From: an uncultured Methanosarcinales archaeon
GTDB taxonomy: Archaea; Nanobdellota; Nanobdellia; Woesearchaeales; DATDXC01
Length of the DNA stretch: 64,000 nucleotides
Direction: 5' to 3'
NCBI GenBank assembly: GCA_964510025.1
Contig: CAZDZV010000006.1
Coordinates: 11,143 to 75,142 of the forward strand
Part shown: positions 16,935-58,215 of the stretch, piece after piece
Layout of the letters: each line of letters begins with the position of its first letter
Position numbering within the stretch: position 1 is the stretch's first letter
Notes under the pieces: generated by a model
What the model was told of the DNA's origin: nothing
Database searches by the model: none
Seen by the model: the letters and a program-made list of their open reading frames with translations, nothing else
Translations under genes and position numbers: made by a program

Positions 16935-16942
16935 TTCTATAG

Positions 16943-16955
16943 AAAAGTTTATAAA
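16943..16955 (+). promoter_or_regulatory. BRE/TATA-like box AAAAGTTTATAAA upstream of the ParB-like gene
   Basis: Matches the recurrent A-rich/TTTATA promoter pattern seen upstream of other genes in this window. About 115 nt before ATG 17070. Confidence 0.4.
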
Positions 16956-16991
16956 CAATCTAAGCTAGAGCACTTCAGAAGGGGGTTGTTT

Positions 16992-17053
16992 AATATTGTT
17001 CAACCATTTAACAATATTCAACCATTTTACAATTAAACCACAGATTTATGGTT
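16992..17053. promoter_or_regulatory. repeat cluster in the leader of the ParB-like gene (candidate parS/operator)
   Basis: Inverted repeat AATATTGTT (16992-17000) / AACAATATT (17010-17018). Direct 11-mer TTCAACCATTT at 16999 and 17017. AACCA (17036) -N8- TGGTT (17049). Confidence 0.5.
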
Positions 17054-17069
17054 AAAAAAGTGGGTTTTT

Positions 17070-17882
17070 ATGGGCAGAATTCAGGAGAGATTAGAGCTAG
17101 CCTTGTCAGAATTCGCAGCTCAGGAAAAAAAGGAAAAAGAGAGTATACTATTTCTACCTTTGAGTGAAATAAAGCTTAATCCCAACAGGATAAGAAGAAA
17201 GATCAACAGAGAGGAGATTGCAGATATGGCTAACAACCTGAAGAAGTTTGGCATACTTCAGCCTCTTGAAATCAACGGAAAAAAAGAAGTGGTCCTGGGC
17301 AACAGGAGATTTGAGGCTGCAAAACTAGCTTCTTTGGAGAAGGTTCCTTGTGTAATACGCAACAGCTCAGACATCTTGGAGATGGAAAAACAGCTTGTTT
17401 CCGACCTTCACACAAAGCATCTAAGTGTGCTTGAGAGGGCAATAGCTTTTAGCACCCTTATGGAACTGAAGTCAATGACCAAATACGCGCTTGCAAAATA
17501 TCTAAATCTAAGCCACAACCTTGTATGCAGGACCTTGGCGCTGCTGAAAGCAAATGAGAATACCATGAGATTGATCAGGCTAGGCAGAATCAGCCAGAGA
17601 AAGGTAGCTATGGTTTTGTATAGGCTGAAAGACAAAAAAATGGAAGATTTCGTGATTCAGGAGATAATAGGCAGAAAGATGAATATAGTTCAGGCAGGAA
17701 ATTTCATAGCAGAGATAAATGATCCTGAGATATTCAAGAAGCATTTCTTGACAAGAATAAAGGCTTTCAAAACAACAGTGATGCACTTTAGGGAAAAGCT
17801 CGAAAAACTCAATCTTACCGAAGAGCAAAGAAAAGAGATTCTGGAAGAGCTAAGGTCCATTGATTTCAGTGAAATATTATGA
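17070..17882 (+). CDS. ParB/Spo0J/KorB-like protein (ParB N-terminal domain + HTH)
   Basis: 270 aa. LPLSEIKLNPNRIRRKIN...ILQPLEI...VLGNRRFEAAKLA contains the GxxRxxA arginine patch. HTH KYALAKYLNLSHNLVCRTLALLK. No ParA is nearby. ATGA overlap with the next gene. Confidence 0.75.
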   Translation: MGRIQERLELALSEFAAQEKKEKESILFLPLSEIKLNPNRIRRKINREEIADMANNLKKFGILQPLEINGKKEVVLGNRRFEAAKLASLEKVPCVIRNSSDILEMEKQLVSDLHTKHLSVLERAIAFSTLMELKSMTKYALAKYLNLSHNLVCRTLALLKANENTMRLIRLGRISQRKVAMVLYRLKDKKMEDFVIQEIIGRKMNIVQAGNFIAEINDPEIFKKHFLTRIKAFKTTVMHFREKLEKLNLTEEQRKEILEELRSIDFSEIL

Positions 17883-18718
17883 AGGTTGATTTCGATTTCC
17901 ATACCCATACTGACGTATCTGATGGTAGCTTAAGCCCTTCTGCCCTGGTCAGAAAAGCCAAGCGTGAAGGATTGAGGCTTATTGCGATAACAGACCACGA
18001 CAATATTGACGGTATACCTGAAGCAGTTGAGACTGGCAGGAAGATAGGTATTGATGTCATTCCGGGTGTGGAGATTAGCATTGACTTCAAGGCTACGATG
18101 CATATGTGCGGCTACTTCATCGACATAACTGATACCCAGCTCAGAAAAGCCCTGAAGTTTGTGCAGGATGCTCGCAGAGACAGAAATCCTCAGATTATCG
18201 ATAAGCTGAACAAGCTGGGCATGGATGTGAGGATTGAAGATGTTAAGAAACATGCAGGCAGGGATCAGATTGGAAGGCCCCATTTCGCAAAAGCGCTTAT
18301 CGAGAAAGGCTATGTTACGACAAAAGAAGAGGCCTTTGAAAAATATCTGGCAAAAGGCAGGCCGGCGTATGTAGACAAGAAGCGGCTTGACAGGGAGAAA
18401 GCAGTGAAGACCATCCTGGATGCAGGAGGCACTGCTGTCCTTGCGCATCCCAAGCAGCTTCGCCTGGACACTGCCAAAGAATACAGGAAGCTTTTTATGG
18501 AGATGAAGGAATTGGGCGTCTCTGGCATCGAAGCATACTCAAGCTGCCATACAGAAGATGAAAATAAGATGTTCAGGGAGATCGCTGATGAGCTGGGGAT
18601 GCTTGTCACCGGAGGCAGCGACTTCCATGGTGACACAAAACAAGATGTTGAACTAGGGGAATTCGGAGAGAACATTGATATTGACGTGGATAAGTTGGTT
18701 GAAAAGATGAAAGCATGA
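17879..18718 (+). CDS. PHP-domain phosphoesterase, COG0613 (TrpH/YciV-like); candidate 3',5'-bisphosphate nucleotidase
   Basis: 279 aa. DFHTHTDVSDGSLSPSALVRKAKREGLRLIAITDHDNIDG, ...AHP..., GGSDFHG. The stops and starts at both ends overlap as ATGA. Confidence 0.8.
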   Translation: MKVDFDFHTHTDVSDGSLSPSALVRKAKREGLRLIAITDHDNIDGIPEAVETGRKIGIDVIPGVEISIDFKATMHMCGYFIDITDTQLRKALKFVQDARRDRNPQIIDKLNKLGMDVRIEDVKKHAGRDQIGRPHFAKALIEKGYVTTKEEAFEKYLAKGRPAYVDKKRLDREKAVKTILDAGGTAVLAHPKQLRLDTAKEYRKLFMEMKELGVSGIEAYSSCHTEDENKMFREIADELGMLVTGGSDFHGDTKQDVELGEFGENIDIDVDKLVEKMKA

Positions 18719-20118
18719 GAGAAAAGCACATTTTCTGGCTTCTGCTTGTTTTTATTGTATATATGCATTTTGAAGACCTGGTGAAGCTCTATTTCAATTA
18801 TCATCCGATAGCGCATGGGTTCAAGTATGTTTTTGCCCTGGTATTCTTCCTTATATGGATTTTTCAGATTGGGGTAGTTAATACAAGATTTACGATACCT
18901 CTGGCTGTTTATCTGTTCTTTGTATTTGTCCAGTTCATAAATCCCCTCATGTTTGGAAAACAGGGCTTTATGTTGTCGGTTATTGGGTCGCTTTACTATA
19001 TAGCATTTGTGCCCTTGTTTTTTGTTGCCCATCGGGTATTTGATATAGAAAGGCTGAAAAAGACACTATGGATTGTCTTAGGCTTGGCTTGCTTTTCAGC
19101 TCTGGCAGCGCATATACAGTTCTTCCTTGGCTGGCAGAGATACCTCCAGCTGATGCCTTACAGCCATGAGATGTTCCTGAGGACCAAAAACTTTGTTTTC
19201 CATGGGCCTTTGGCTTTCAGCGTAAAGCCCCCAAGATACTGGTATGTTGCAGGCATAATGATCAGCAGCATTTTTGTTCTTTCTGAAAAGAAAAAGCTCA
19301 TAGCTGGCTTTCTGGGCCTTAACTGCTTGCTTGCTTTGGCCCTTTCAGGAATGAGGTTTGCCATGGCAGCTTCTTTTTTTTCCCTGATGATAGTCTTTTT
19401 CTTTGGACTAAGAAAGCAGAAAATATCTAATGCGATGAGGATAGCTGCAGTTTTGATACTGCTATTGACTATGTTTTTCCCTTTCTCGATGCTTCCCAAG
19501 CAAAGGTACATTCAGTTCATCACAAATCCTGTTGGTACATATATCCAGCAAAGAGGGAGGATGTGGCCACAGTTTTTCAGGGATATCGTCAAATATCCGT
19601 TAGGCACAGGATTGAGGGCCGGAGGGCATATTGACACCGAAAGGTTTAAGGTACCTGATGTATCGATGCGTGCCGGAGAAAACTACATAGCAGTCATCGC
19701 TTCCCAGATTGGCATATTTGGGCTGATTGCAGTGCTTTGGCTATATGTTGCGATAGCCCGAAAATTCTATGAAAACTTGTCCCTGAGGAGATTCAGATAT
19801 TTTGTCAGTCTGGGCATATTTGCCCTGCTATTTTCCTTTATGTTTGAGGTGGGTTTTTTCCCGGGAGAAGGCCCGAGCTACTGGATGTTCTGGCTGTTTT
19901 CAGGTGTCTTGTTCAAAATAGATAAGATGGAGGTACAAAAGATGCGAAAAACATATTCTTTGGCTAGCGAAAGTTTTTTTCTCAGGGGAATTCCTGATGT
20001 AAGGGTATGGCTCTTACAAAGCAAATTTGTCAAGCTGGGCCATAGGATATTCTGTTGTTTCAGGAATTCAAGGTTTTTTAGGTTTATTGAGAATATAGTC
20101 AAGTATGCGGAAATTTAA
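18715..20118 (+). CDS. polytopic membrane protein, O-antigen ligase/polymerase (Wzy_C)-like
   Basis: 467 aa, about 10-12 hydrophobic helices. The loop GTGLRAGGHIDTERF lies between helices, as in the Wzy_C family. Confidence 0.5.
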   Translation: MREKHIFWLLLVFIVYMHFEDLVKLYFNYHPIAHGFKYVFALVFFLIWIFQIGVVNTRFTIPLAVYLFFVFVQFINPLMFGKQGFMLSVIGSLYYIAFVPLFFVAHRVFDIERLKKTLWIVLGLACFSALAAHIQFFLGWQRYLQLMPYSHEMFLRTKNFVFHGPLAFSVKPPRYWYVAGIMISSIFVLSEKKKLIAGFLGLNCLLALALSGMRFAMAASFFSLMIVFFFGLRKQKISNAMRIAAVLILLLTMFFPFSMLPKQRYIQFITNPVGTYIQQRGRMWPQFFRDIVKYPLGTGLRAGGHIDTERFKVPDVSMRAGENYIAVIASQIGIFGLIAVLWLYVAIARKFYENLSLRRFRYFVSLGIFALLFSFMFEVGFFPGEGPSYWMFWLFSGVLFKIDKMEVQKMRKTYSLASESFFLRGIPDVRVWLLQSKFVKLGHRIFCCFRNSRFFRFIENIVKYAEI

Positions 20119-20893
20119 GGTCCTGGTTGCCATACTATCGCTGATTGTCGTCGTGGAACTAGTTTTGAGGTTATTCGGTTTTGGGAACCCTGTGCTCTAC
20201 GTTGAGGACCCGGATATAGGGTATCTGCCGAAAGCCAATCAAAGCATATACAGGTTTGGCAACAAAATATACTACAATGAATATCATCAAAGGTCTGATG
20301 ACCTGATGGCAGATCCAGACTATAGGGTATTTATGTTGGGTGATTCTGTCCTGAATGGTGGGACCTTAATAGACCAGAAAGATACAATCAGTGAGATATT
20401 AGAGAGGCAGTTAAATTCATTCTGTAATTGTAAAGGCGAGGTCCTAAGCGCATCTGCCAAAGGATGGGCAATAGAAAATGAGTATGAATACCTTAGAAAA
20501 TTCGGCACTTTTAATTCAAGTCTGATTATATGGGTGATAAATGAAGGTGATTTGTACCAAAAAAAGAATTTGGGCCGAGACTATCCGTCAAAACCTTACT
20601 TATTTGCTTTGTCTAAGGTATTTTTCCACTATCTGCGCCCGAGAAAATCCGCTTCTGGATCCCAGAATCCGCCGTTGTCCTTTCTTTCACTTTTGAAGAC
20701 TGACTCTCAAGTCGTTATAGTGCAAATACCTAAAAGAAGATCTACTTCAGGAAAGCTGGATATTCAATTAGAAAGAATTGATATCAGGCTTAGTGACAAT
20801 GCGTACAGGGATGATATCCACCTTAACAGGCAAGGCAATTATATTGCCAGTGAAATTATATTTTCCACTATTAAGGACAAAATATTAGACTGA
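20105..20893 (+). CDS. membrane-anchored SGNH/GDSL-type hydrolase
   Basis: 262 aa. N-terminal TM. Block I FMLGDSVLNGG and block V DDIHLN (DxxH). Confidence 0.6.
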   Translation: MRKFKVLVAILSLIVVVELVLRLFGFGNPVLYVEDPDIGYLPKANQSIYRFGNKIYYNEYHQRSDDLMADPDYRVFMLGDSVLNGGTLIDQKDTISEILERQLNSFCNCKGEVLSASAKGWAIENEYEYLRKFGTFNSSLIIWVINEGDLYQKKNLGRDYPSKPYLFALSKVFFHYLRPRKSASGSQNPPLSFLSLLKTDSQVVIVQIPKRRSTSGKLDIQLERIDIRLSDNAYRDDIHLNRQGNYIASEIIFSTIKDKILD

Positions 20894-20937
20894 AAATCAG
20901 CCGATTATTGAAAAGTCTCTGCTAAAATAATCATAAG

Positions 20938-21762
20938 ATGGAAGGATATTTGATAATAGCAGCTTACCAACAAAAGTTCCTTGAGATGGCCTCGAATCTA
21001 GCACTATCGATAAGGTTGAAGGATGACAGGCCAATAGCAATCGCAGTTAAGGACATTAAGGTTGATCCAGGCTCTAAAAGAATATTTGATCACATAATTG
21101 AGATACCGCATGAAAAGTCCAGAAAGGCGCATCTTAATAAGTTTATTATGAATGAACTTACCCCTTTCAGCAAAACGATGTACATTGATGCAGATTGCCT
21201 AATGGTCAAGGATGATATTTCTATTATTTGGAAAAAGCTAAAGAAATACAATTTCACAGTACAGGGGACCAAGGTGGAATATGGAAACCATAGAGGGATT
21301 GACGTTTTAAATGTCAAAGACAAACTTGGCATTCCTTATTTTGTAAAGTCAAATAGCGGATTAATTTATTTTGATAAAACTAAAAAAACAAAGAAAGTTT
21401 TTGAGAAATTGAATTGGTATTTGTTGAAAGATGAAAAGATACTGCGTGTTCCATTTCGCGGTCAAATCAAAGATGAGACTTATATCGGTGCTGTAATGGG
21501 GCACCTTGAGCTTGAACCATTTCCAGTTGTATTTAGACATTATTTTCAGCTCAAGCAATGGATGCAGTGTGTATCAGCTAGGTATTGTGCAGAGATCGAT
21601 GTTTTGAAAGGAAAATCCAAGATAACCTTCCGAGATGGCCATACTGATAGCCCAACGGTCGCGCACTTTGTCGGCTTTGTAGGCAAAAGGCAGCTTTATT
21701 TAAGGGAATCGAATAGGCTAAGAAAAGAATTTGGATTTTCTAAAAATAAGATTTTATGCTGA
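20938..21762 (+). CDS. putative GT-A-fold glycosyltransferase (GT8-like, DxD)
   Basis: 274 aa. MYIDADCLMVKDD is a DxD motif in a nucleotide-diphospho-sugar-transferase-like context. The family call is tentative. Confidence 0.4.
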   Translation: MEGYLIIAAYQQKFLEMASNLALSIRLKDDRPIAIAVKDIKVDPGSKRIFDHIIEIPHEKSRKAHLNKFIMNELTPFSKTMYIDADCLMVKDDISIIWKKLKKYNFTVQGTKVEYGNHRGIDVLNVKDKLGIPYFVKSNSGLIYFDKTKKTKKVFEKLNWYLLKDEKILRVPFRGQIKDETYIGAVMGHLELEPFPVVFRHYFQLKQWMQCVSARYCAEIDVLKGKSKITFRDGHTDSPTVAHFVGFVGKRQLYLRESNRLRKEFGFSKNKILC

Positions 21763-22667
21763 ATAGACCAAGTTGTACATTATCATTCTTCGTGGCAAGA
21801 ACAGATGTCTCATTTATGATGCATACCATACCCCATCTGGTGCGGATGGCTAATTATCCATTTAGTAAAAAAATTATTTTTGTAGATTCAAAGGATCTGA
21901 AAAGCGACAAGAAAAACCGGGCTAATATAGGGACACTAGAAGAAGTCAGAGATAAATGCAAGGAGCTGCAAGATCAGAATATAATTGATGAGATTATTGA
22001 CTTTGATTATACACATCCTATCGTAGCAGAGACATACAGAAAATATTTTGAAAAAAATTTGAGACATACCCATAATTGGAAAGGTTACCCGGTATATGGA
22101 AATCTTTTTGCAATTGAAAACTGCGATTCAGATTATTTATTGCATTTTGATAGCGACATACTAATGTATCAAGACAACAATTTTAGCTGGGTTGATGCGA
22201 GTATGAAGATAATGGGGGGTAATTGTAACATAGTTACGACCAGGCCCCTCGCAGGCCCATCTGAAAAATCTTCGCCAGGATATCACTTAAGCCAGACATT
22301 TGGAAGTCGATGCTATTTGATACATACTAAAAGACTTAAACAGATATTACCCCTGCCCCTTTTGGTAAGCTTCAGACGCACAAGAATACTGGATTCCTTT
22401 CCCCAGCGAATCAAAAAAAAGTTATATTTGAGTTTCGAAAAGGGCGAGCTGGATTCATGGGAATTGATGGTTGGAGCAGCGCTGAGGAAAAACAGGAAAT
22501 TTCGGGCAATACTATCTTCAGATAAGGCGTGGACTTTGCACCCAAAGGATCATGGTGAGCAATTTATTAGGTTGCTTCCCGAAATTATCCAGAGGATTGA
22601 GCATAAAGATTTTCCTTTGGAACAGGAAAAGAAATACGATCTTGATTTGAATTTATGGACTCGATAA
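21756..22667 (+). CDS. putative GT-A-fold glycosyltransferase
   Basis: 303 aa. KKIIFVDSKD ... LLHFDSDILMYQ (DxD). Tentative. Confidence 0.3.
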   Translation: MLNRPSCTLSFFVARTDVSFMMHTIPHLVRMANYPFSKKIIFVDSKDLKSDKKNRANIGTLEEVRDKCKELQDQNIIDEIIDFDYTHPIVAETYRKYFEKNLRHTHNWKGYPVYGNLFAIENCDSDYLLHFDSDILMYQDNNFSWVDASMKIMGGNCNIVTTRPLAGPSEKSSPGYHLSQTFGSRCYLIHTKRLKQILPLPLLVSFRRTRILDSFPQRIKKKLYLSFEKGELDSWELMVGAALRKNRKFRAILSSDKAWTLHPKDHGEQFIRLLPEIIQRIEHKDFPLEQEKKYDLDLNLWTR

Positions 22668-23683
22668 GAAAGAAACCAAAAATATTTTTCTATTTGCCTG
22701 AGGAATATCTTCCGCAAGGCCAGATACCAGAGGATTATACAGAATTCTGGGACTACTGTGTAAAGAACTGGAATGGGTACTATGCGGGAATTCTAGTCTG
22801 GACCCTTAAGACGTACCTATTGCTTAAAGATTATGTTTCATGCAAATTAGTTACAAACATTCCTGAAAAAGGGATAATCATTGCTCATAGAAAATCCTTA
22901 CCTGCAAAACCGAAGCCGAAGCAGCTCTTTGTTTGCATCAAGGCAGATAAGTCAGTACACCCATATTCGCAGATCCATCTGGTGCAAAATTCTTGTGACT
23001 GTCTCTTCAAAAGGTCACCCGGACTGTGGCAGACATACTATGTCCCCCGTTGGCCCCAGGATAAATTGAAGCCAAGGTCAAAATCGAGAGGCACAAGACT
23101 AGAGAATGTTGGTTATTATGGGGTAAGACGGGAGCTGGCCAAAGAGTTACAGTCTAAAAAATTTGAGAGACTTATGCAATCGAACGGTTTTAAGTGGCAT
23201 ATTTTTTCCAATCCGAAGAAGTGGGTTGATTACAGCAAAACAGATGCTATTGTAGCGGTTAGGAGTTTTAAAAAACAGGGATTCAATAATAAGCTAGCGT
23301 CTAAACTATATAATGCGTGGCGAGCAGGTGTACCTGTATTATTGGGGCCAGAGACAGCTTATCAAAATGAGAAAAAAAGCCGGTTTGATTATATGGAAGT
23401 AAATTCAGCAAATGAAATAATCTCAGCACTTAAAAGCTTAAGAAAGAATCATAGGTTATACAAGCAAATGGTGAATAATGGAATTATCCGATCCAAAGAG
23501 GTCAGTCAGAATAAGATTATCGGTCTTTGGAAATCTTTTTTGGTGAATGTTGCAGTTCCTGCATATCGAAGGCACTGTAAAAATCGTATTTCCACTAACA
23601 TGTTCCTGCTGCAGAGATATTTTTATAACGTATATTATCAACTTCATTTTAAATTTAGGTCGAAAATTTTGTATGGCATATAA
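22655..23683 (+). CDS. putative GT-B-like glycosyltransferase
   Basis: 342 aa. C-terminal NNKLASKLYNAWRAGVPVLLGPE resembles the GT-B donor-binding helix. Tentative. Confidence 0.3.
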   Translation: MDSIRKKPKIFFYLPEEYLPQGQIPEDYTEFWDYCVKNWNGYYAGILVWTLKTYLLLKDYVSCKLVTNIPEKGIIIAHRKSLPAKPKPKQLFVCIKADKSVHPYSQIHLVQNSCDCLFKRSPGLWQTYYVPRWPQDKLKPRSKSRGTRLENVGYYGVRRELAKELQSKKFERLMQSNGFKWHIFSNPKKWVDYSKTDAIVAVRSFKKQGFNNKLASKLYNAWRAGVPVLLGPETAYQNEKKSRFDYMEVNSANEIISALKSLRKNHRLYKQMVNNGIIRSKEVSQNKIIGLWKSFLVNVAVPAYRRHCKNRISTNMFLLQRYFYNVYYQLHFKFRSKILYGI

Positions 23684-24194
23684 TAAAATATTTGGGATAG
23701 GTCTTTCAAAAACTGGGACTACATCTTTAGCTAGGGCCTTGGAGATTTTGGGATTTAGGACTGTTCACTCCCCTAGGAAGTCCTATTTATATGAGAAAAG
23801 AAGAGGCCTTCCATATTTCTCTACATTAGAAGAATATAGGGGTTTTACAGATTTTCCTTGTTGGGCAATATACAAAGAAGTGGATATTTTGTATCCGGGC
23901 AGCAAATTTATCCTAACTGTTCGAAATCCTCATGATTGGTACGTCAGCAGAAAGAAGCATTATAAAGCAAGACTGAAACAGGATATCAAACTTGATTGGG
24001 ATATGAGCAAAAAGTCAATGGATAAACTTCTGAAACATAACCAAGAAGTGATGGGGTATTTTAAGAGAAGAAAAAAAGATTTACTAGTGCTTGATATTGC
24101 AAAGGGAGAAGGTTGGGACAAGCTGTGCCGGTTCCTGCAGGTCCAAGAACCTTCCTTAACATTCCCCCACCTTAACAAGTCAGAATGTCTGTGA
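23673..24194 (+). CDS. sulfotransferase-family protein (1 of 3)
   Basis: ATG 23673 gives MAYNKIFGIGLSKTGTTSLARALEILGF, a PAPS 5'-phosphosulfate-binding P-loop-like motif. The ORF track start at 23547 overlaps the previous gene and is probably over-extended. Confidence 0.6.
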   Translation: MAYNKIFGIGLSKTGTTSLARALEILGFRTVHSPRKSYLYEKRRGLPYFSTLEEYRGFTDFPCWAIYKEVDILYPGSKFILTVRNPHDWYVSRKKHYKARLKQDIKLDWDMSKKSMDKLLKHNQEVMGYFKRRKKDLLVLDIAKGEGWDKLCRFLQVQEPSLTFPHLNKSECL

Positions 24195-25051: not shown

Positions 25052-26091
25052 TGAGAAGGAAAGCAGCGCTTTTATTCCCAACATTCCATGGTGGAGGTGC
25101 GGAAGCAGTATGTGCCTGGATATTAGATGCTTTGAAAGGCAGATATGATATAGATTTATTCACCTGTCAAAAAATTACGGCAGAAGAACTTAACAGGTTT
25201 TATGGAACCAAATTATCCAGAAACTCGTTTAGGCTTATTTATAGCAAGCTATTCAATGCGCTTATCCGGATTAACAAAATTTTGCCTTTTGATCCTAATC
25301 TTAGAAGCAGACTGCTAAAAATTACCTTTGAAAAATTTAAGCAAGATTATGATCTTGTTATAAATGGGAAGGATGAAATAGACATCAGTGAAAAAAGTAT
25401 TCATTATATCCATTTTGCAGGCAATCTCATTAAGGGCAAACCATTGCATAAGCATCGTTACATAGCGAATTCCAGAAGTACGGCTAAGCGTGCTGGCTTT
25501 AGGGATATAGGGGTAGTCTATCCGCCCGTGTGTAAAAGGTTTAAAAAAGTTCCCTGGAAATCAAAAGAAGAAGGCTTCATAATAATAGGCAGGATTACAG
25601 AAGAAAAGGGTACACATAAGGCAATTCAAATACTGCAGAAAGTGAGGGCCAAAGGATATGAGGTTAACCTCCATATCGTAGGGACAGTTTATAATTGGCG
25701 CTATTTTGGTTTGGTGAAAAAGATGGCCAGGAAAAGGGATTGGGTGATCCTACATAAGTCAATTTCTAACTATCGGCTTAAAAAGTTGTTGGAAAAGAAT
25801 AAATATGGCATACATTGTAAAGGCGGTGAGCCCTTCGGTATCGATCCTGCGGAAGTGCTTTATTCAGGCGGCATACCGTTTGTACGTAATAAAGGGGGGC
25901 AGACTGAGATTGTCGGAGACAAAAGGCTGATATTCGGGTCCGAGGATGAGGCTGTAGAGAAGATATGCAAGGTGCTTAGCTCAAAAAAAATTCAGGCTCA
26001 TTTATTAAAAAAACTAAATAAAAGAAAAAAAATATTGGGATGCGACAGGTTTAGAGAGAATTTTTTGAAGGCTATCCACAAAATGCAATGA
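25051..26091 (+). CDS. GT4-type (GT-B) glycosyltransferase
   Basis: 346 aa. EKGTHKAIQIL...GEPFGIDPAEVLYSGGIPFV, an E-x7-E-like region. Confidence 0.6.
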   Translation: MRRKAALLFPTFHGGGAEAVCAWILDALKGRYDIDLFTCQKITAEELNRFYGTKLSRNSFRLIYSKLFNALIRINKILPFDPNLRSRLLKITFEKFKQDYDLVINGKDEIDISEKSIHYIHFAGNLIKGKPLHKHRYIANSRSTAKRAGFRDIGVVYPPVCKRFKKVPWKSKEEGFIIIGRITEEKGTHKAIQILQKVRAKGYEVNLHIVGTVYNWRYFGLVKKMARKRDWVILHKSISNYRLKKLLEKNKYGIHCKGGEPFGIDPAEVLYSGGIPFVRNKGGQTEIVGDKRLIFGSEDEAVEKICKVLSSKKIQAHLLKKLNKRKKILGCDRFRENFLKAIHKMQ

Positions 26092-26915
26092 AGAGAGGCA
26101 TCTATCTCTTAGCAAATGACCAGGTCTTAGATAATACGCTCGCATTAATCAATAGCATACGTTTTTTTGATCCATATGCATCAATTATCATGATACCTTA
26201 CGATTGTCATGATGTCCGCATAACAACTATTCTGAGAGAGAAATATGGCATTCCGAAGTACCGGAATGATTCGCTGCTCAATAGAATTGACCTGAAAATT
26301 AAGGAGTTTTTTGGAAAGAAATTTTTTACCAGACCTAATCAGTTTAGGAAGCAAGCCTGTTGGTTTGGACCTTTTGATGAATTTCTTTATCTAGACACCG
26401 ACATTGTGGTTTTTGAAAGAATAATTAACAATCTAGAACATCTTAAAAACAAGGATTTTGTTTTTTGTGACTATCAGCACAAGAACGGAATAAAATATTT
26501 GTTTAATCCGCCAATCAAGAATGCCTTAGAAAAAGAGGATCTGAAATTTGTTTTTAACGCTGGTTTTTGGGGATCAAGAAAAGAACTGATAACAGAGCGC
26601 AAGCTATATGGCGCACTTGAAGAATGCGCCAAAAATATGAATTTTTTTGATTTTTCAGCAAAAGTTACTGATATGCCAATTTTTAATTATTTAGTTTTAA
26701 GGAAAATAAAAAAAAGAATCAATTTGGTAAGGGATCTAGAAAGAAAAGGACCAGGAAATTGGGCAGGGATGGATCATTTTATCAGAAAAGGGAACCGGCT
26801 TTTTGATCCAAATGTAAAGCAGTACCTCAAATACCTGCATTGGGCTGGGATTAATATCCAAAAAGGTTGTCCTTACTATGATGTATGGAATTACTATCGG
26901 AGATTGAATAAGTGA
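26088..26915 (+). CDS. putative GT-A-fold glycosyltransferase (GT8-like)
   Basis: 275 aa. GIYLLANDQVLDNTLALINSIR ... FLYLDTDIVVF (DxD). Tentative. Confidence 0.35.
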   Translation: MKRGIYLLANDQVLDNTLALINSIRFFDPYASIIMIPYDCHDVRITTILREKYGIPKYRNDSLLNRIDLKIKEFFGKKFFTRPNQFRKQACWFGPFDEFLYLDTDIVVFERIINNLEHLKNKDFVFCDYQHKNGIKYLFNPPIKNALEKEDLKFVFNAGFWGSRKELITERKLYGALEECAKNMNFFDFSAKVTDMPIFNYLVLRKIKKRINLVRDLERKGPGNWAGMDHFIRKGNRLFDPNVKQYLKYLHWAGINIQKGCPYYDVWNYYRRLNK

Positions 26916-27667
26916 ATATCTGTTTTTCAACGCTCGCATTGGGAAAAAAGTACCAAGAAATGGCCAAGACCCTTGCCGCTGATATCAAAAAATTCAATCC
27001 AAAAATGAAGATAATTATTTTATCAGACGATACTAAGGTCTTTGAAGATATGGACAATGTGATGGCGATACATCATTGCCAGCAGGGAGTGATGTTCCCT
27101 TACCATGATAAAAGATTTGTTGTAGCTGAAGCGTTGAGACGATTTGACGCTACATTATTTGTAGATGCTGACAGCAGGTTGAACTCGTATGTTGATATAT
27201 CGGGCATATCAAGAGAGGATATATACTGTAACCAGACTGAAAATCTGATAGCTCACATTAAGAAATACAACCCAGATCGTTTATACCATGTAAACAAGAT
27301 AGCCAAGAAAATGTCAATTAATCCCGATAAGGTAACTTATATGGGAGAATCTTTTTTTTTTATCGGAACAAAAAAGATTCAGGATTTTATCTATTATTGG
27401 GGCAAGATAGTAGGATATTTGGAAATTCACAGGATTGTTGCAGGAGCAGGCATTTCGATGGGACTCGCTGCACATAAGGCAGGTATCAAAATATGTGAAT
27501 CAGACAGGTTGCTTACCGCTTCAAGATCCTTTGAACATATCAATATTGCCAAAAAAAAGAGTAAGCAGTCTCTTTACGAATCATTTAAGAACAGGTTCCT
27601 TTACCACTATAGGCTTAATAAAGCTAGGATAAAAGCTATATCAGATTTTGATTTTTACTACAGATAA
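26912..27667 (+). CDS. putative GT-A-fold glycosyltransferase
   Basis: 251 aa. GTG start in a GTGA overlap. LFVDADSRL (DxD). Contains a T10 run at 27352-27361. Tentative. Confidence 0.3.
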   Translation: MNICFSTLALGKKYQEMAKTLAADIKKFNPKMKIIILSDDTKVFEDMDNVMAIHHCQQGVMFPYHDKRFVVAEALRRFDATLFVDADSRLNSYVDISGISREDIYCNQTENLIAHIKKYNPDRLYHVNKIAKKMSINPDKVTYMGESFFFIGTKKIQDFIYYWGKIVGYLEIHRIVAGAGISMGLAAHKAGIKICESDRLLTASRSFEHINIAKKKSKQSLYESFKNRFLYHYRLNKARIKAISDFDFYYR

Positions 27668-28612: not shown

Positions 28613-29476
28613 TTGGCTAACGAAACATATATTTCCGTGATTGTCCCCGTATATAACGGAGAGAAGACCATTGAGAGATGTTTATGCTCACTTGCAAATC
28701 AGCGCTATCCTAAAAAAAGATATGAAGTGATAATAGTCGACAATAATTCCACTGATGATACAAAAAAAATAATTGAGAAATATCCAGCTAAATATTTGTG
28801 TGAAAAAAAAAGAGGTTCTTATGCTGCAAGAAATAAAGGTATTAGATATGCTAAAGGCAGAATCTTGGCATTTACTGATGCAGACTGCATGGCTCATGTG
28901 AATTGGATAGCAGATGCTGTTAGGGAATTTTCAGACAAAAAAACCGGATGCGTCGCCGGAAGGATAGGTGCAGGTCAAAGAAATAGCCATATAGAAAGGT
29001 ATATTGCTAAAAAGAAGCTGCTTATACAAAAGAAAGAACCATGCGGTCTGCCGCTCCCCTATGCAAAGACAGCAAACGCTTTTTATAGAAAAGAAGTTTT
29101 TGACAAGATAGGATTGTTTGAAGAATGGATTTCCGGAGGAGATGCTGATCTCTGCTGGAGGATGCAGAAGAAAACAGAATATGGGCTGAAGTTTTCGCGT
29201 GCGCTAGTTATACATAAACATAGGACCTCAACAGCAGGATTGTTTAAGCAGTGCTTTAAGTGGGGTATAGGCAATGCCTTCTTGAAAAAAAAATACCGAG
29301 AAATGCCGCAAATATCATTTAGGGGCCGTTTGTGGATTATTTGCCGGATCCTCTTCGGTTTGCCCATGCTTTTTTATCTGATCCTAAAAAAGGACTCATC
29401 TGACAGATTATTTGATAGGCTAGCATTTATTGGATGGCATTTAGGAATGTTTATCGGATTTATAAAAAAAAGATGA
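28613..29476 (+). CDS. GT2 glycosyltransferase (paralog of 24185..25051)
   Basis: ISVIVPVYNGEKTIERCLCSLANQRYPKKRYEVIIVDNNSTDDT ... AFTDADCMA. TTG start. Confidence 0.85.
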   Translation: MANETYISVIVPVYNGEKTIERCLCSLANQRYPKKRYEVIIVDNNSTDDTKKIIEKYPAKYLCEKKRGSYAARNKGIRYAKGRILAFTDADCMAHVNWIADAVREFSDKKTGCVAGRIGAGQRNSHIERYIAKKKLLIQKKEPCGLPLPYAKTANAFYRKEVFDKIGLFEEWISGGDADLCWRMQKKTEYGLKFSRALVIHKHRTSTAGLFKQCFKWGIGNAFLKKKYREMPQISFRGRLWIICRILFGLPMLFYLILKKDSSDRLFDRLAFIGWHLGMFIGFIKKR

Positions 29477-30303
29477 AAGGTCCAGATTTCATTGTCTTAG
29501 GAGCGGCAAAAGCAGGAACTACCTCTCTTTATCATTACTTAAAGCAGCATCCGGCAATTTTTATTCCAAGTAAAAAGGAATTAAGATTTTTTACTAACAG
29601 GACAGCTGATATTGACGAATATCTGAGGTTTTTCGTGGAGAAATCTGATAAAGTAGCCGGGGAAGTTTCAAGTGATTACTTGTATTCCGGACCCGATACT
29701 GCTAAAAGGATAAAGAAATATTTTCCAGGTGTAAAGCTTATAGCTATACTGCGAAATCCTATTGATAGGGCATATTCAGAATATTGTATGGATCTAAGAC
29801 TTGGAAAAGTCACAGGAAGTTTTGCTGATGAGTTGGGGGGGAAATTCAAAACAAGGTATCTTAATCAGGGATTTTATCATAAGCAGATAAAAAGATATTT
29901 AAAAATATTTGATGAGAAACAATTTAGGGTTTGGCTTTATGATGACCTGTGCCAGGATCCTATGAAGCTATTACAGGAAATTTTTAAATATATCCGTGTA
30001 GATACTAACTTTATACCCAATATCAAAATAAAACATAATAAAGGGGCTGTACCAAAAAATATTTTTGTTCAGGTTTTAGTCCAAAGACCTAATATATTAA
30101 GAAAAGTATTTAGAAATTTTTCAGCACTATTTTTTCCTTTACATATTAGACAAAGAATTCGTAATAGTATAATAAATCACAATTTAAGGAAAATTCTTCC
30201 TATGGATTCAGACATAAGAAGGTCTTTATTAGAGTTTTATAGATCTGACATAATTAAGTTACAGACCCTAATGAATCGTGATTTGTCTTCATGGTTGCGC
30301 TAA
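29473..30303 (+). CDS. sulfotransferase (Sulfotransfer_1-like; 2 of 3)
   Basis: ATG 29473 in an ATGA overlap gives MKGPDFIVLGAAKAGTTSLYHYLKQHP (5'-PSB loop). RNPIDRAYSEY is the 3'-PB region. Confidence 0.8.
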   Translation: MKGPDFIVLGAAKAGTTSLYHYLKQHPAIFIPSKKELRFFTNRTADIDEYLRFFVEKSDKVAGEVSSDYLYSGPDTAKRIKKYFPGVKLIAILRNPIDRAYSEYCMDLRLGKVTGSFADELGGKFKTRYLNQGFYHKQIKRYLKIFDEKQFRVWLYDDLCQDPMKLLQEIFKYIRVDTNFIPNIKIKHNKGAVPKNIFVQVLVQRPNILRKVFRNFSALFFPLHIRQRIRNSIINHNLRKILPMDSDIRRSLLEFYRSDIIKLQTLMNRDLSSWLR

Positions 30304-34034: not shown

Positions 34035-35155
34035 CTTTCATAGTCAGCCACCCGATCCAGTATTTCTCTCCGCTATTTAGATTACTATCGAAAAAAATGG
34101 ACCTTACGGTCATTTATCTATCAGATGAAACATTGAAGACTTTCATGGATAAAGAATTTTCAGCAGCGATTAAGTGGGATATTCCTTTGTTAAAAGGGTA
34201 TAGGTACAAATTACTAAAAAATAATTCACCTGTCCATTCTGTTTCCAGGCCACCTTTTGGTTTATTAAATCTTGGGATTCTAAATGAGATAACCAATAAA
34301 AAATATGATTGCATAATAGTCCATGGGTGGCATTATGTAAGCCATTGGTTAGTCTACATCCTATGTATCCTTAGGCAGCTGCCTTTCTATATTAGGTCTG
34401 AATCTCCCCTAAACCAGGAAAAAACAAAGCCTGATTGGAAGATTTACATCAAAAAAATTTTACTTGGATATTTATTTCGTAGGGCAGCTGGTCTTCTGGC
34501 GATTGGAACTCAAAACAGGAGATTCTATGGGTTCTATGGGGTAGAAAATAAAAAAATCTTTTATGCACCTTATTCTGTCGATAATGATAGGCTTATGCCA
34601 AAAAAACGTAAAACTAAAAAAGACAAAATAGTAATCTTGTTTGTTGGGAAGCTTATAGAGAAAAAAAGGCCTATGGATCTGTTGCAGGCCTTTGAAAGGA
34701 TAAGTTATGAAACAAAAGCCCTGTATTTTGTAGGCGAAGGAAAAATGAAGAGACAGCTGCAAAAATATACGAAAAAAAATCATCTAAAAAACGTATTTTT
34801 CCCTGGATTTGTAAATCAGACAGCCCTCCCAGACTATTATAATATGGCGGATATATTTGTGCTTCCGTCTGGAATAGGAGAAACCTGGGGGCTGGTAGTA
34901 AACGAAGCAATGTGTTTTGGCCTCCCAGTTATAGTATCGGATATTTCAGGATGCAGCACAGATTTGGTAAAACAAGGCAAAAATGGCTACATATTTAAAA
35001 CAGGAGATATAGGACAATTGTCACGATATTTGAACATGCTTATAAAAAATAAGAAACTAAGAAACCAGATGGGATCTAGGTCTCTCAAAATCATAGGTCA
35101 ATTTAGCTGCAAAGCAGCAGCCGAAGGGATTGCTAAGGCTGTCAAGAGAAAATGA
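34022..35155 (+). CDS. GT4 glycosyltransferase
   Basis: FVLPSGIGETWGLVVNEAMCFGLPVIVSDISG. Confidence 0.8.
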   Translation: MDKVAFIVSHPIQYFSPLFRLLSKKMDLTVIYLSDETLKTFMDKEFSAAIKWDIPLLKGYRYKLLKNNSPVHSVSRPPFGLLNLGILNEITNKKYDCIIVHGWHYVSHWLVYILCILRQLPFYIRSESPLNQEKTKPDWKIYIKKILLGYLFRRAAGLLAIGTQNRRFYGFYGVENKKIFYAPYSVDNDRLMPKKRKTKKDKIVILFVGKLIEKKRPMDLLQAFERISYETKALYFVGEGKMKRQLQKYTKKNHLKNVFFPGFVNQTALPDYYNMADIFVLPSGIGETWGLVVNEAMCFGLPVIVSDISGCSTDLVKQGKNGYIFKTGDIGQLSRYLNMLIKNKKLRNQMGSRSLKIIGQFSCKAAAEGIAKAVKRK

Positions 35156-36963
35156 AGCCATTTTTAAAAATAAGGAAAATTTTAGGACTTTTCAGAAAAC
35201 TCGAAATCCGCTTAGTTTACTTTGCGATCCCTATAGTTCTTTCGTTTCTAATAGCATTTTTTGAAGGCCTAAGCATCGGACTGCTAATACCCTTGGCTAA
35301 AGGGATTGTGGAGATGGAATTCAGTTTTGTGAGAAACCTTCCTTTTTTTAAGACAATCAATGACCTTTTCCCCCAGTTGCTAGCGCATAATAGGGCGATC
35401 TTTGTGACTCTTGTACTGATCATATTCATCTCAGCAGTCTTAAAAAATGTCTTCACCTATCTATCTTCCGTCATAGTAAGATATCAAATACGGCAAGCTG
35501 CGCATAAAGCAAGAAAGCACATATTCAATAGATATCTAAGTTTTGGCAAGCTTTTTTATGACAGGAATAATGAGGGCCATCTGCAAAGCATACTGCTCAG
35601 CTATACAAACTCGATCATAGGTCAGCTAGGCTCTATCTCCCACCTCATGAACGGCTCCGCTATGCTTCTTGTGTATTTTATTATGATGTTTTCCATATCC
35701 TGGAGATTGACTGTATTCATTCTGCTGATATTTCCGGTCCTGAACCTATCACTGAAATATCTGATTGCGAAGATAAAGAAAACCTCAAAGTTCTCGGCAG
35801 ATGCTAGGAAGAGGATGAACAGGGCAGTCTTCAACGTGCTTTCGTCTATACCGATTATAAAGGCATATACGAAAGAGGAGGAGGAAAAGAAGAACTTTGA
35901 CAAAATGAGCGAAGAAATGTCAAAATGGGACTTCAGTATGGATAAAAAATACGACCTGATAGGGCCAATGCAGGAAGTTATAACCTTGATAGCAGTACTG
36001 TTGGTAATCTCAGCCATGGCCTTCTTGTTTATAAAAACTAAGACAGGTGATATCTACGGGTTTGCCGTATTTTTTTATCTGTTGAAGAAATCCATGGGCA
36101 CGTTTGGTATCTTTAACAGCTTCAAGGGATCATTGGCAAAAGCCTCCGGACAGGTGCAAGAAATAATGCATATTCTCAGTGAGAAGAATAAGCATTATGT
36201 AAAAGGAGGAAGAAAAGAATTCAATGGATTGGAATCAGAGATTAAGCTGAGTAGGCTAAGCTTCCATTATGACTCAAAAGTTCCCATAATCAAGGACATA
36301 TCCTTCTCTATCAGAAAAGGAAAGATGACGGCTATTGTAGGGCCAACTGGCTCAGGTAAGACAACAATAATCAATCTTCTTCTGAGATTTTATGAATGCC
36401 CTGAAGGTTCTATATTTGTAGATGGGCGGGATATCAAGGAGTTCACGTTAAAATCGATAAGAAAGCATATGGCCCTTGTCAGCCAGGATACTATGCTTTT
36501 CAATGATACATTGAGAAAAAATATGACCTACGGAATAGACAGACAGGTGTCTCAGCAGGAGTTGGCTAGGATAGCAAAAAAGGCCCGGATCTATGACTAC
36601 ATCAAGAAGCTTCCGCGTGGCTTTGAAACGGTTATAGGTGATAGGGGAGTGCAGCTTTCTGGAGGTGAAAAGCAGAGGATATCGATTGCAAGAGCCCTCT
36701 TGAAGAACGCCGATATATTGATACTAGATGAAGCCACAAGCTCCCTGGACTCCAGAACAGAAAAGCTCATTCAGGAAGCTATCTACGAAGCTGTGAAGGG
36801 GAGAACCTCTATAGTCATCGCACACCGGCTTTCGACTATAAAGAACGCTGACAAGATTATCATCATTGAGAAAGGCAAGATAATTGAAAAAGGAAAACCC
36901 AAGGAACTGCTTGGAAAAAAAGGCAGATTCTATCAATATTGGCAGGAGCAGAAGTTTGAATAA
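35152..36963 (+). CDS. ABC exporter, fused permease/ATPase (MsbA-type)
   Basis: 603 aa with six N-terminal TM helices. Walker A GPTGSGKTT, signature LSGGEKQRISIARAL, Walker B ILILDEATSSLD and H-loop IVIAHRLST. Confidence 0.9.
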   Translation: MKPFLKIRKILGLFRKLEIRLVYFAIPIVLSFLIAFFEGLSIGLLIPLAKGIVEMEFSFVRNLPFFKTINDLFPQLLAHNRAIFVTLVLIIFISAVLKNVFTYLSSVIVRYQIRQAAHKARKHIFNRYLSFGKLFYDRNNEGHLQSILLSYTNSIIGQLGSISHLMNGSAMLLVYFIMMFSISWRLTVFILLIFPVLNLSLKYLIAKIKKTSKFSADARKRMNRAVFNVLSSIPIIKAYTKEEEEKKNFDKMSEEMSKWDFSMDKKYDLIGPMQEVITLIAVLLVISAMAFLFIKTKTGDIYGFAVFFYLLKKSMGTFGIFNSFKGSLAKASGQVQEIMHILSEKNKHYVKGGRKEFNGLESEIKLSRLSFHYDSKVPIIKDISFSIRKGKMTAIVGPTGSGKTTIINLLLRFYECPEGSIFVDGRDIKEFTLKSIRKHMALVSQDTMLFNDTLRKNMTYGIDRQVSQQELARIAKKARIYDYIKKLPRGFETVIGDRGVQLSGGEKQRISIARALLKNADILILDEATSSLDSRTEKLIQEAIYEAVKGRTSIVIAHRLSTIKNADKIIIIEKGKIIEKGKPKELLGKKGRFYQYWQEQKFE

Positions 36964-38170: not shown

Positions 38171-38935
38171 ATGTTAATCAACATGCTAAAAAAGAGTGAA
38201 TATGTGCGAAAAAAATACCATGGCATAAAAGATTTTTTTTATGGCCTTAAATACTTTTCAGGAACTAAAAAAGGTCTAAAATACTTTATAGTTGTATGTC
38301 AAGCAAGGACAGGCAGTACATTATTGATGGACTTATTAGGTTCACACCCGAATATTAAAGTAGACCATCACAGCTTTTTTAAGATAGATAATTTGAAGCA
38401 TAAAATAACCCAGCAAAAAGCAAATACGCGTAAATTCTGCAGGGGATTCAAGTTTAGGTTGTACGATGATGGAAAGGAATATGATTTTAGCAAAATGTAT
38501 CAATTCTTTTGCTCTCTGGATAATGCAGATATTAAGATGATCCACCTAATCAGAAAAAACCAGCTAAGACAGTCCCTTTCCGCAGAAGTGGTAGACTATT
38601 ACAAGAAAATTGGATTGACAAGGCTTCATTCAAAAGATAAGAATCCTGAGATACCGAAAATAAAGGTAGATATCCAAAAGACGCTAAATCGGATTAATTA
38701 TTCAAGAAAGTTGCTAAAGGCAGAGAATGATCTGCTCAAGCATTTCCGCCATCATACAGTTAATTATGAAAAAGATCTTTTGCATTCAACCGACCATCAA
38801 AAAACATCAGACAAGATATTTGCATTTTTGGGCCTCCCCTCTGCTAAGGTCAGTTCAGATTATCGAAAGACAAGTATTGACAACCCATCAGAATATATTG
38901 ATAATTTTAATCAATTGAGGTTGCACTACGAATGA
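38171..38935 (+). CDS. sulfotransferase-family protein (Stf0-like P-loop; 3 of 3)
   Basis: 254 aa. YFIVVCQARTGSTLLMDLLGSHPNI. Preceded by the largest gap of the block (117 nt). Confidence 0.6.
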   Translation: MLINMLKKSEYVRKKYHGIKDFFYGLKYFSGTKKGLKYFIVVCQARTGSTLLMDLLGSHPNIKVDHHSFFKIDNLKHKITQQKANTRKFCRGFKFRLYDDGKEYDFSKMYQFFCSLDNADIKMIHLIRKNQLRQSLSAEVVDYYKKIGLTRLHSKDKNPEIPKIKVDIQKTLNRINYSRKLLKAENDLLKHFRHHTVNYEKDLLHSTDHQKTSDKIFAFLGLPSAKVSSDYRKTSIDNPSEYIDNFNQLRLHYE

Positions 38936-40059: not shown

Positions 40060-41021
40060 ATGTGAAAAAAGACATCTCAATAGTCATCCCGACATATAAC
40101 GGCTCAAGGTACCTGCCCGAAGTGTTAAACGCTTTGAGGAATCAGGAAGGCCTAAAGGAGATATCCTGGGAGGTTATTGTCGTAGATAATAACAGCACAG
40201 ACACTACGCCGAAGATCGTCGAAGAATTTCAGAAAAAATGGGATATGGACAATAAATTAAGGTATCTTGTTGAAAAAAGACAAGGCGCAGCGTATGCGAG
40301 GGAAACTGGTGTAAGAAATGCAAAAAGCAAGATTATTGGGTTTCTTGATGATGATAATATTCCTGAGAAGAACTGGATCCTGGAAGCTTATAGATTTGGG
40401 TCTGAACATCATGAAGCAGGAGCATGGGGGAGTAGGATCAAAGCAAGATATGAAAAAATGCCGCCTGAAAATTTCGATAGCATAAAGATGTATTTTGCGA
40501 TTATGGAAAAAGGGGAAAATGCTTATTGTTCTGAAGCTAAAAAATTTGTCTTGCCCCCTAGTGCTGGTCTTGTGGTAAGAAAAGATATATGGCCCGCATC
40601 ACCTTTATTGCTAACTGGAAGAACAAAGGAAACATGGCTAGCTGGTGAAGATATAGAGCTATTAGTTAGAATACAGAATAAAGGCTATGGAATATGGTAC
40701 AATCCAAGGATGGAAATTACACATATAATACCTGCTGCAAGGCTTGAGCCAGAATATGCCATTAACTTGATGAAAGGGATTGGATTATGCAAATACATAA
40801 CCAGGATGTTGAGACAATATGTATTGGCTAGACCTGTGGCCATAGTGGGATATTGTATTTCAGATTTTTTAAAGATGATGAAATTTATGCTCAGGTTCCG
40901 AGCCAAAATAATAAAAGATGCTCTGCTGAAGGCTGAATTTTTTTTATATCTGTACAGTTTTTATAGCCCTTTTTATTTTTTATTTAGATACCCAAAAAAG
41001 TTTTTTCTGATAGGAAAATGA
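40056..41021 (+). CDS. GT2 glycosyltransferase
   Basis: ISIVIPTYNGSRYLPEVLNALRNQ...WEVIVVDNNSTDTT...FLDDDNIP. Confidence 0.85.
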   Translation: MNVKKDISIVIPTYNGSRYLPEVLNALRNQEGLKEISWEVIVVDNNSTDTTPKIVEEFQKKWDMDNKLRYLVEKRQGAAYARETGVRNAKSKIIGFLDDDNIPEKNWILEAYRFGSEHHEAGAWGSRIKARYEKMPPENFDSIKMYFAIMEKGENAYCSEAKKFVLPPSAGLVVRKDIWPASPLLLTGRTKETWLAGEDIELLVRIQNKGYGIWYNPRMEITHIIPAARLEPEYAINLMKGIGLCKYITRMLRQYVLARPVAIVGYCISDFLKMMKFMLRFRAKIIKDALLKAEFFLYLYSFYSPFYFLFRYPKKFFLIGK

Positions 41022-43222: not shown

Positions 43223-43223
43223 G

Positions 43224-45595: not shown

Positions 45596-45617
45596 ACTAC
45601 CTGCCTAGGCGAAGATT

Positions 45618-48004: not shown

Positions 48005-48018
48005 GCTGCACCCCCAGA

Positions 48019-52966: not shown

Positions 52967-52975
52967 TTCTTCACC

Positions 52976-55563: not shown

Positions 55564-55579
55564 TATTTCCCCAGTATAG

Positions 55580-56365: not shown

Positions 56366-56558
56366 TTATAAATCTAATAAAGTCCTTTATTATAAACTTT
56401 GTTATTAAACTTTCGAAATATTACTATTTTCTTTGCAATGAGCCGTCTCATCGCCCCCTCTCTTCGCAGATCCTTCTATATACAATGCAAGCCTTATGTA
56501 TTACATACTCCGAACGTTGCTTATAAACGATGGGAGCCTTAAATTAGGTGGTGATAAA

Positions 56559-57113: not shown

Positions 57114-57115
57114 AA

Positions 57116-58162: not shown

Positions 58163-58215
58163 AAAATCACTAAAATAGTCACTTATTCAATCTCCGTATA
58201 ATATCACTTCTTATA

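Follow-up and report, generated by a model that had tools for sequence, protein, structure and literature searches.

The canonical pAp phosphatase of bacteria and eukaryotes, i.e., the enzyme hydrolysing 3'-phosphoadenosine-5'-phosphate (pAp), is CysQ, a member of the inositol-monophosphatase/FIG superfamily (PMC8268124). The archaeal pAp phosphatases studied biochemically, PyapApase of P. yayanosii, Ton_1706 of T. onnurineus and APE_0124 of A. pernix, are DHH/DHHA1 (NrnA-type) proteins, and an archaeal gene of this type is clustered with sulfate-activation genes (PMC8268124). In the PHP/amidohydrolase superfamily, Cv1693 of Chromobacterium violaceum (2YB1) is a 3',5'-nucleotide bisphosphate phosphatase that hydrolyses pAp (Cummings et al. 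2014, as summarised in PMC9410882 and PMC8268124), and RNase AM (YciV/TrpH; 7UG9), a 5'-to-3' exoribonuclease, nanoRNase and deFADding enzyme, shows enhanced activity towards 3',5'-pAp (PMC11528712). Here we describe a PHP gene of this family in a stretch of archaeal DNA of 64 kb from contig CAZDZV010000006.1, referred to in its whole length as the window. It heads a surface-glycan cluster with three sulfotransferase genes, and family membership, conserved residues and the synteny of its clade suggest that its product is probably a phosphatase that clears pAp and thereby serves sulfation by the downstream cluster.

In comparison with Cv1693, the window protein has the same fold, length, nine metal ligands, three pocket arginines and stacking phenylalanine, and would catalyse the same reaction, from pAp to AMP and inorganic phosphate (Pi); it differs, however, in sequence (33.6% identity), in two residues considered below, in the location of its clade in polysaccharide loci with genes for the synthesis of 3'-phosphoadenosine-5'-phosphosulfate (PAPS), and in its archaeal host. 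Family and active site are likewise shared with RNase AM, again at 33.6% identity, but the genomic context is one of sulfation and not of ribosomal RNA (rRNA) maturation. With CysQ, the protein shares only the proposed role, the removal of pAp stemming from PAPS-consuming enzymes, as fold and metal chemistry are unrelated, and the same role is held by the DHH pAp phosphatases, which are two-metal DHH proteins in contrast to the three-metal PHP superfamily, the window gene being moreover of bacterial type. The putative sulfotransferases of Woesearchaeota, and archaeal polysaccharide sulfotransferases in general, are uncharacterised (PMC11625862).

The PHP protein and its active site

17879 to 18718, + strand: PHP-family (COG0613, TrpH/YciV/Cv1693-type) trinuclear metallo-phosphoesterase, proposed pAp 3'-phosphatase (Pfam, NCBIfam, PDB, residues, synteny)

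The open reading frame (ORF) starts with ATG and encodes 279 amino acids (aa), beginning with MKVDFDFHTHTDVSDG and including the motif AITDHDNIDG. About 120 homologues, 278–303 aa long, match it in length and start, which puts it far beyond what would be expected by chance. With respect to family placement, PF02811 (PHP, E = 1.5e-15) is the only Pfam match at E ≤ 0.01, a CpsB-family match being absent, and the best NCBIfam match is NF041577, 3',5'-nucleoside bisphosphate phosphatase (240.7 bits, E = 1.6e-71, profile positions 3–262 of 276), followed by NF047791, RNase RNM (196.6 bits), while a match to a histidinol-phosphatase-type model is weak and confined to the N-terminus. The top PDB matches obtained with HMMER are 2yb1, i.e., Cv1693 (1.4e-38, residues 4–255), and then 7ug9, the E. 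coli 5'-3' exoribonuclease RNase AM (1.4e-33), the similarity to these two solved structures being enough to fix the fold, and one close homologue carries the label '3',5'-nucleoside bisphosphate phosphatase' at JGI. The COG0613-type protein quoted for these coordinates in an initial annotation is thus borne out by the ORF, PF02811, NF041577 and 2yb1, and sequence comparison confirms that it is a PHP phosphoesterase of the TrpH/YciV/Cv1693 type over its full length. In a neighbour-joining tree the protein falls within a clade of about 111 metagenomic proteins, with all GTDB loci outside and with Cv1693 and RNase AM pairing together. By sequence, it thus belongs firmly to the family, but to neither of the two characterised orthologue groups.

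The metal ligands of RNase AM are His13, Glu72 and Asp255 for Mn-alpha, Glu72, His83 and His198 for Mn-beta, and Asp20, His45 and His257 for Mn-gamma, and its 5'-phosphate pocket is formed by Arg107, Arg110 and Arg141 together with the stacking residue Phe161, an architecture also found in Cv1693 (PMC9410882). In the window protein all nine metal ligands are present, with H8, H10, D15, H40, E65, H75, H190, D248 and H250 aligned to H13, H15, D20, H45, E72, H83, H198, D255 and H257 of RNase AM, respectively, and R99, R102, R133 and F153 of its insertion domain correspond to R107, R110, R141 and F161. The metal ligands, the three-arginine pocket and the stacking phenylalanine are invariant in 120 of 120 clade members.

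PAPS-synthesis genes around the clade

Ten close homologues of the window protein (54–62% identity), picked for long available contigs and blind to context, were inspected for their neighbouring genes. In nine of them PAPS-synthesis genes, either Sat/CysC or CysD/CysN/CysC, stand beside the PHP gene or within 6 kb of it, in at least five architectures. A fusion of Sat with adenosine-5'-phosphosulfate (APS) kinase directly follows the PHP gene in P0003, P0005 and P0022 (L006, L093 and L097), overlapping it in P0005, and lies further on in P0016 (L004), where the gene order is TauE-TauE-PHP-anion permease. The order DegT-PHP-CysD-CysN/CysC is found inside a Wza/Wzz/Wzc capsule locus in P0007 (L002), and DegT-acetyltransferase-oxidoreductase-PHP-CysC-CysD-CysN in both P0033 and P0045 (L096 and L098). 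PAPS-type sulfotransferases occur near the PHP gene in two of the ten contexts: L095 (P0011) has three Sulfotransfer_1/3 genes, a radical-SAM gene, PHP, Sat/APS-kinase, a second radical-SAM gene and a family 2 glycosyltransferase (GT2), with Wzy_C and GT9 genes nearby, and P0047 (JGI 3300075153) has a sulfate ABC transporter, Sat, CysC, a DHHA1 protein, an arylsulfotransferase, PHP and Sulfotransfer_1. The exception among the ten is P0009, with the same set of sugar-modification genes upstream but a porin-like gene downstream, where the contig ends. Most of the PAPS-linked PHP modules lie within surface-polysaccharide loci (Wza/Wzc, DegT, GT2, GT9, Wzy_C), like the gene in the window.

As a control, more distant members of the family at 80 GTDB loci (35–48% identity, among the matches listed) were compared, and APS kinase or CysDNC was found within 10 kb in only six of these loci. 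Five belong to Planctomycetota/FCPU426 and have cysC immediately upstream, and the sixth is from Calditrichaceae. The immediate neighbours in this set are heterogeneous (of 139, seven LysR, five NFACT and two APS kinase). The difference between 9/10 and 6/80 is significant (p = 6.6e-8, Fisher's test), also when only distinct architectures are counted (5/6, p = 7e-5). A metagenome scan with the single PHP protein yielded only six distant loci.

With respect to the initial annotation, which had proposed a pAp-removing enzyme serving sulfation and had counted a lack of linkage between orthologues and sulfotransferase genes as speaking against this proposal, linkage to sulfation is what was found, through PAPS synthesis in nine and through sulfotransferases in two of the ten contexts, and this synteny together with the intact catalytic and nucleotide-binding residues supports the proposed role. 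The accompanying argument, that the PHP gene independently points to PAPS-dependent sulfation by the cluster, is strengthened by the linkage of the clade to PAPS synthases.

Two further observations concern the contigs of these homologues. P0047 encodes several arylsulfate sulfotransferases, which are PAPS-independent, and with its DHHA1 (NrnA-like) protein and its PHP protein holds two candidate pAp phosphatases in one sulfation island. On the separate contigs L004 and L006, genes of the 23S-rRNA intervening-sequence family (PF05635/bAvd-like) lie between the PHP, PAPS-synthase and sugar-modification genes.

The glycan cluster, its sulfotransferases and its host

Around the PHP gene and in the cluster downstream of it lie the following features:

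16935 to 17069, no strand: intergenic stretch preceding the ParB-like gene, possibly the promoter/operator of the ParB-PHP-Wzy unit (sequence reading)
17070 to 17882, + strand: orphan ParB-like protein (ParB_N, PF02195, 3.4e-16; HTH_ParB, PF17762, 2.7e-11; TIGR00180, 90.1 bits, above its cut-off)
18715 to 20118, + strand: Wzy_C / O-antigen-ligase-like polytopic membrane protein, its start overlapping the PHP stop (PF04932, 1e-7)
20105 to 46229, + strand: co-directional surface-glycan cluster (Pfam, gene spacing, GC)
23547 to 24194, + strand: sulfotransferase 1 of 3 (Sulfotransfer_4, PF17784, 2e-32; motifs GLSKTGTTS and RNPHDWYVS)
29434 to 30303, + strand: sulfotransferase 2 of 3 (Sulfotransfer_1/3, PF00685, 3.8e-15, and PF13469, 1.7e-14; motifs AAKAGTTS and RNPIDRAYS)
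35152 to 36963, + strand: ABC exporter of the glycan cluster (Pfam)
38171 to 38935, + strand: sulfotransferase 3 of 3, a marginal Sulfotransfer_3 match (PF13469, 1.4e-6, 29.1 bits against a cut-off of 27; motif QARTGSTLL)
41821 to 42384, + strand: hexapeptide acyltransferase of the glycan cluster (Pfam)
45618 to 46229, + strand: priming Bac_transf sugar transferase of the glycan cluster (Pfam)

In addition, the glycan cluster holds about nine GT2 and about seven GT4 genes, a DUF4330 gene and several ORFs without a family. The presence of three sulfotransferases, as initially annotated, is upheld by Pfam, with the third match being marginal, and by PAPS-binding motifs, since a 5'-phosphosulfate-binding (5'-PSB) loop (K/R-[TA]-G-[TS]-T) and a motif resembling the 3'-phosphate-binding (3'-PB) motif are seen in all three. 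Sulfotransferase 2 is 30% identical to a sulfotransferase of the bacterial locus L095 (tblastn, 8e-33), which also holds a close PHP homologue. When called mechanically, the ORF of sulfotransferase 1 shares 137 nt with the preceding gene, and its homology starts at an internal ATG at 23673 (MAYNKIFGIGLSKTGTTS), which is probably the real start.

Between 17070 and 46229 all genes lie on the + strand and mostly overlap by 1–20 nt, with gaps of 44, 117 and 22 nt, from which we infer a single operon. Both ends of the PHP gene show 4-bp ATGA overlaps: the stop of the ParB-like gene (17880–82) falls within the start of the PHP gene, whose own stop (18716–18) falls within the next start at 18715. The composition of the PHP gene (GC 0.47, GC3, i.e., GC at third codon positions, 0.52) matches that of core genes such as aIF5B (0.46 and 0.52), and the gene thus occupies the compositionally core-like 5' edge of the cluster and not its interior. 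Across the middle of the cluster (about 20900–41800, including all three sulfotransferases) the GC content is mostly lower, about 0.32–0.40 per gene with one GT2 at 0.44, while the cluster ends (17070–20100 and 41800–46229) and core genes lie at 0.40–0.47. This profile suggests a central cassette that might be replaceable or horizontally acquired, between conserved flanks formed by ParB/PHP/Wzy on one side and by the hexapeptide transferase to Bac_transf genes on the other. At 20105–23683, 26088–27667 and 41018–41833, seven consecutive or clustered ORFs of 250–340 aa have no Pfam family at E ≤ 0.01 and may encode novel glycosyltransferases or modifying enzymes.

The ParB-like protein is a possible regulator of the array; no ParA was found within the 64-kb window. 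Its adjacency to PHP is confined to the window and the identical 3-kb Logan contig L001, and a conserved ParB-PHP pair was rejected, as a ParB match was found in none of 97 other loci. The region upstream of it (16935–17069) contains the AT-rich, TATA-like sequence TTTATAAA and an inverted repeat of 9 nt, AATATTGTT-N9-AACAATATT, that overlaps the direct repeat TTCAACCATTT, present twice. This region may serve the ParB-like protein as an operator or parS-like site.

The cluster is flanked by archaeal genes coding for aIF5B, Trm1, RtcA, a CTP-dependent riboflavin kinase, a TFS-like zinc ribbon protein, DUF460 and HerA, and aIF5B is 65–75% identical to proteins named Woesearchaeota or Nanoarchaeota archaeon. 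All named relatives among the best 120 matches of the PHP protein are bacterial (Chitinispirillaceae, KSB1, Marinimicrobia/Fidelibacterota, Omnitrophica, Acidobacteria and Desulfobacteraceae), as are the nearest relatives at 54–62% identity, and on the contigs of the closest homologues there are bacterial markers, among them LolA, Wza, heptosyltransferase and 23S-rRNA-IVS proteins. The simplest reading would be an acquisition of the PHP gene from bacteria by a Woesearchaeota-like DPANN archaeon, and the core-like GC3 suggests that this transfer is not recent.

Elsewhere in the window, a defence island of very low GC content (0.29) at 52037–58977 comprises a restriction endonuclease of the DpnII type, two methyltransferases, one Dam-type (D12) and the other N6_N4, and an ATPase resembling AAA_15/OLD proteins, with two tyrosine-recombinase genes on its 3' side (56496–57113, + strand, and 58216–58977, - strand). 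At 46609–48657 on the - strand, two lumazine-synthase paralogues, one of them divergent, and a MarR-fused CTP-dependent riboflavin kinase stand in a row, a partial riboflavin/FMN module that is notable for a reduced DPANN genome.

Proposed function and alternatives

In the mechanism we propose, the three sulfotransferases of the glycan cluster would release pAp in proportion to glycan sulfation, because each PAPS-dependent sulfotransferase reaction releases pAp, and accumulated pAp would inhibit the sulfotransferases as well as other enzymes. The PHP protein, predicted to be a cytoplasmic three-metal hydrolase and to be co-transcribed with the cluster as its ATGA overlaps with both neighbouring genes, ParB-like and Wzy-like, suggest, would hold the 5'-phosphate of pAp in the pocket of Arg99, Arg102 and Arg133 with the base stacked on Phe153, and would hydrolyse the 3'-phosphate to yield AMP and Pi. 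Its activity would thereby relieve product inhibition and recycle adenylate. It is gene context that supports this assignment to pAp removal as probable.

Several points weigh against it. The protein does not reach the equivalog cut-off of NF041577 (400 bits) and by the NCBI criterion would be a relative of, and not an equivalog to, the bisphosphate phosphatases; nor does it reach that of NF047791 (375 bits), and as it is equally distant from Cv1693 and RNase AM, sequence cannot choose between the two, both of which also degrade short 5'-phosphorylated RNA (PMC11528712). The description of the gene as coupled at both ends inside a sulfotransferase operon holds for the ATGA overlaps, but the closeness was overstated: the overlap partners of this 5'-edge gene are the ParB-like and Wzy-like genes, neither a sulfotransferase nor a PAPS synthase is adjacent, and distances of 4.8, 10.7 and 19.5 kb separate the PHP stop from the starts of the three downstream sulfotransferases. 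Since the GC content of the sulfotransferase genes is low (0.32–0.37) and that of the PHP gene core-like, they may also have separate histories. Furthermore, tblastn searches of the 64-kb window with Sat/CysC, CysD and CysN/C gave no match. Pfam scans of the window ORFs (≥110 aa outside the 16–46 kb cluster, ≥150 aa inside) revealed no ATP-sulfurylase or APS-kinase domain, and no Inositol_P (CysQ-type) or DHH/DHHA1 domain either.

A last point of this kind concerns the active site. Following an H-P-G motif, Arg201 of RNase AM and Arg194 of Cv1693 form a salt bridge to the scissile or product phosphate, whereas the window protein has Gln193 at this position (HPKQLR; codon 18455–18457), and Arg169 (codon 18383–18385) replaces Trp170 of Cv1693 and Trp177 of RNase AM. 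Across 120 clade members position 193 is Gln in 76 and Arg in one, and in the alignment the GR(Y) motif is found solely in the two proteobacterial reference enzymes. The role of the missing arginine might be taken over by R169 or R195. In favour of the assignment, the signature HPxQL(R/K) with R169 is common to the window protein and to PAPS-linked Planctomycete PHP genes (L028, L035, L037 and L069), and the pattern occurs in five of the six PAPS-linked control loci; Q193 is found in 5/6 PAPS-linked compared to 11/79 unlinked control loci (p = 7e-4), these lineages being phylogenetically non-independent. The HPxQL(R/K)/R169 swap may mark a subtype dedicated to sulfation.

Among the alternatives, the family itself directs attention to RNA metabolism, as E. 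coli YciV/RNase AM, a match both at the structural (7ug9) and at the profile level (NF047791), matures rRNA 5' ends (PMC7261194) and is a diribonuclease (PMC11528712). The window protein might then be a housekeeping RNase AM-like 5'-to-3' exoribonuclease or nanoRNase, trimming rRNA 5' ends or clearing di- and oligoribonucleotides and lying near the cluster by accident, and the core-like GC3, the location of RtcA, Trm1 and aIF5B just upstream, the need of DPANN genomes for some nanoRNase and the fact that Cv1693 and RNase AM each hydrolyse pAp along with short 5'-phosphorylated RNAs would all be in line with this. However, the upstream RNA genes lie on other transcription units and strands, and the bisphosphatase model scores higher than that of RNase RNM, whose cut-off is not reached. 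In addition, yciO (PF01300), the typical partner of yciV (bioRxiv 10.1101/2023.12.18.571875), is listed in none of the ten close contexts and is absent at the window locus, where the neighbours are ParB-like and Wzy_C-like, and the nine PAPS-linked contexts tie the clade to PAPS synthesis and not to RNA genes. We consider this explanation unlikely.

A more far-reaching interpretation, and a rather improbable one, is that either the archaeon scavenges PAPS, importing it or APS/PAPS precursors, keeping only pAp clearance and sulfating a surface glycan, or the HPxQL/R169 clade is a sulfation-dedicated subfamily of pAp phosphatases with altered phosphate recognition. The former would fit the contrast between bacterial relatives, where PHP is attached to PAPS synthase in almost every case, and the window, where the pAp-clearing half stands next to three sulfotransferases with no sulfate-activation gene in 64 kb, and PAPS production has been predicted to be possible in just two of 19 Woesearchaeota genomes surveyed (PMC5994134). 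If true, PAPS import combined with a retained detoxifying phosphatase in a host-dependent DPANN cell would represent a novel form of metabolic dependence.

The enzyme could also act as a general 3',5'-bisphosphonucleotide phosphatase that is not dedicated to the cluster, removing pAp from coenzyme A (CoA)/4'-phosphopantetheinyl transfer or controlling the PAPS pool by conversion to APS. Coenzyme A metabolism indeed also yields pAp (PMC8268124), the composition of the gene is core-like, its partner is a ParB-like and not a sulfation gene, and no PAPS synthase was found in the window. The chemistry would be identical to that of pAp clearance for the cluster, with only the physiological source of pAp being different, but the location of the clade in PAPS-synthesis and polysaccharide loci, and of the PHP gene where a cluster encoding three sulfotransferases begins, makes this quite doubtful.

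CpsB-type PHP-fold phosphatases are found at the head of Gram-positive capsule loci, and the overlap of the PHP gene with a Wzy-like gene at the start of the glycan cluster would fit a role in regulating or feeding polysaccharide assembly, either as a CpsB/Wzh-like protein-tyrosine phosphatase or as a sugar-phosphate phosphatase, but this was rejected as very improbable given PF02811 as sole Pfam match, the weak and N-terminal histidinol-phosphatase-type match, the intact nucleotide pocket of the insertion domain (R99, R102, R133 and F153), and the absence of a bacterial tyrosine kinase (BY-kinase; Wzc/CpsD, Wzz/GNVR/CpsD-type) from the glycan cluster of the window.

With pAp clearance for sulfation as the probable function, a previously unnamed PHP gene gains a functional label with comparative support. 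PHP-type pAp phosphatases as such are already known, as exemplified by Cv1693 and the NCBI equivalog model, and no new chemistry is implied; modestly new are a distinct clade in which PHP travels with PAPS synthase in polysaccharide loci, and the presence of one of its members in a DPANN archaeon, separated from PAPS synthase, none having been found in 64 kb. For the clade of about 110 sequences, mostly from FCB-group, KSB1 and similar bacteria, the gene context points to a module for glycan sulfation that makes PAPS and clears pAp. It also offers a context rule for the annotation of COG0613 proteins, for which sequence scores do not tell the two characterised activities apart, and it makes it more credible that a sulfated glycan is the product of the 28-kb cluster in this Woesearchaeota-like archaeon.

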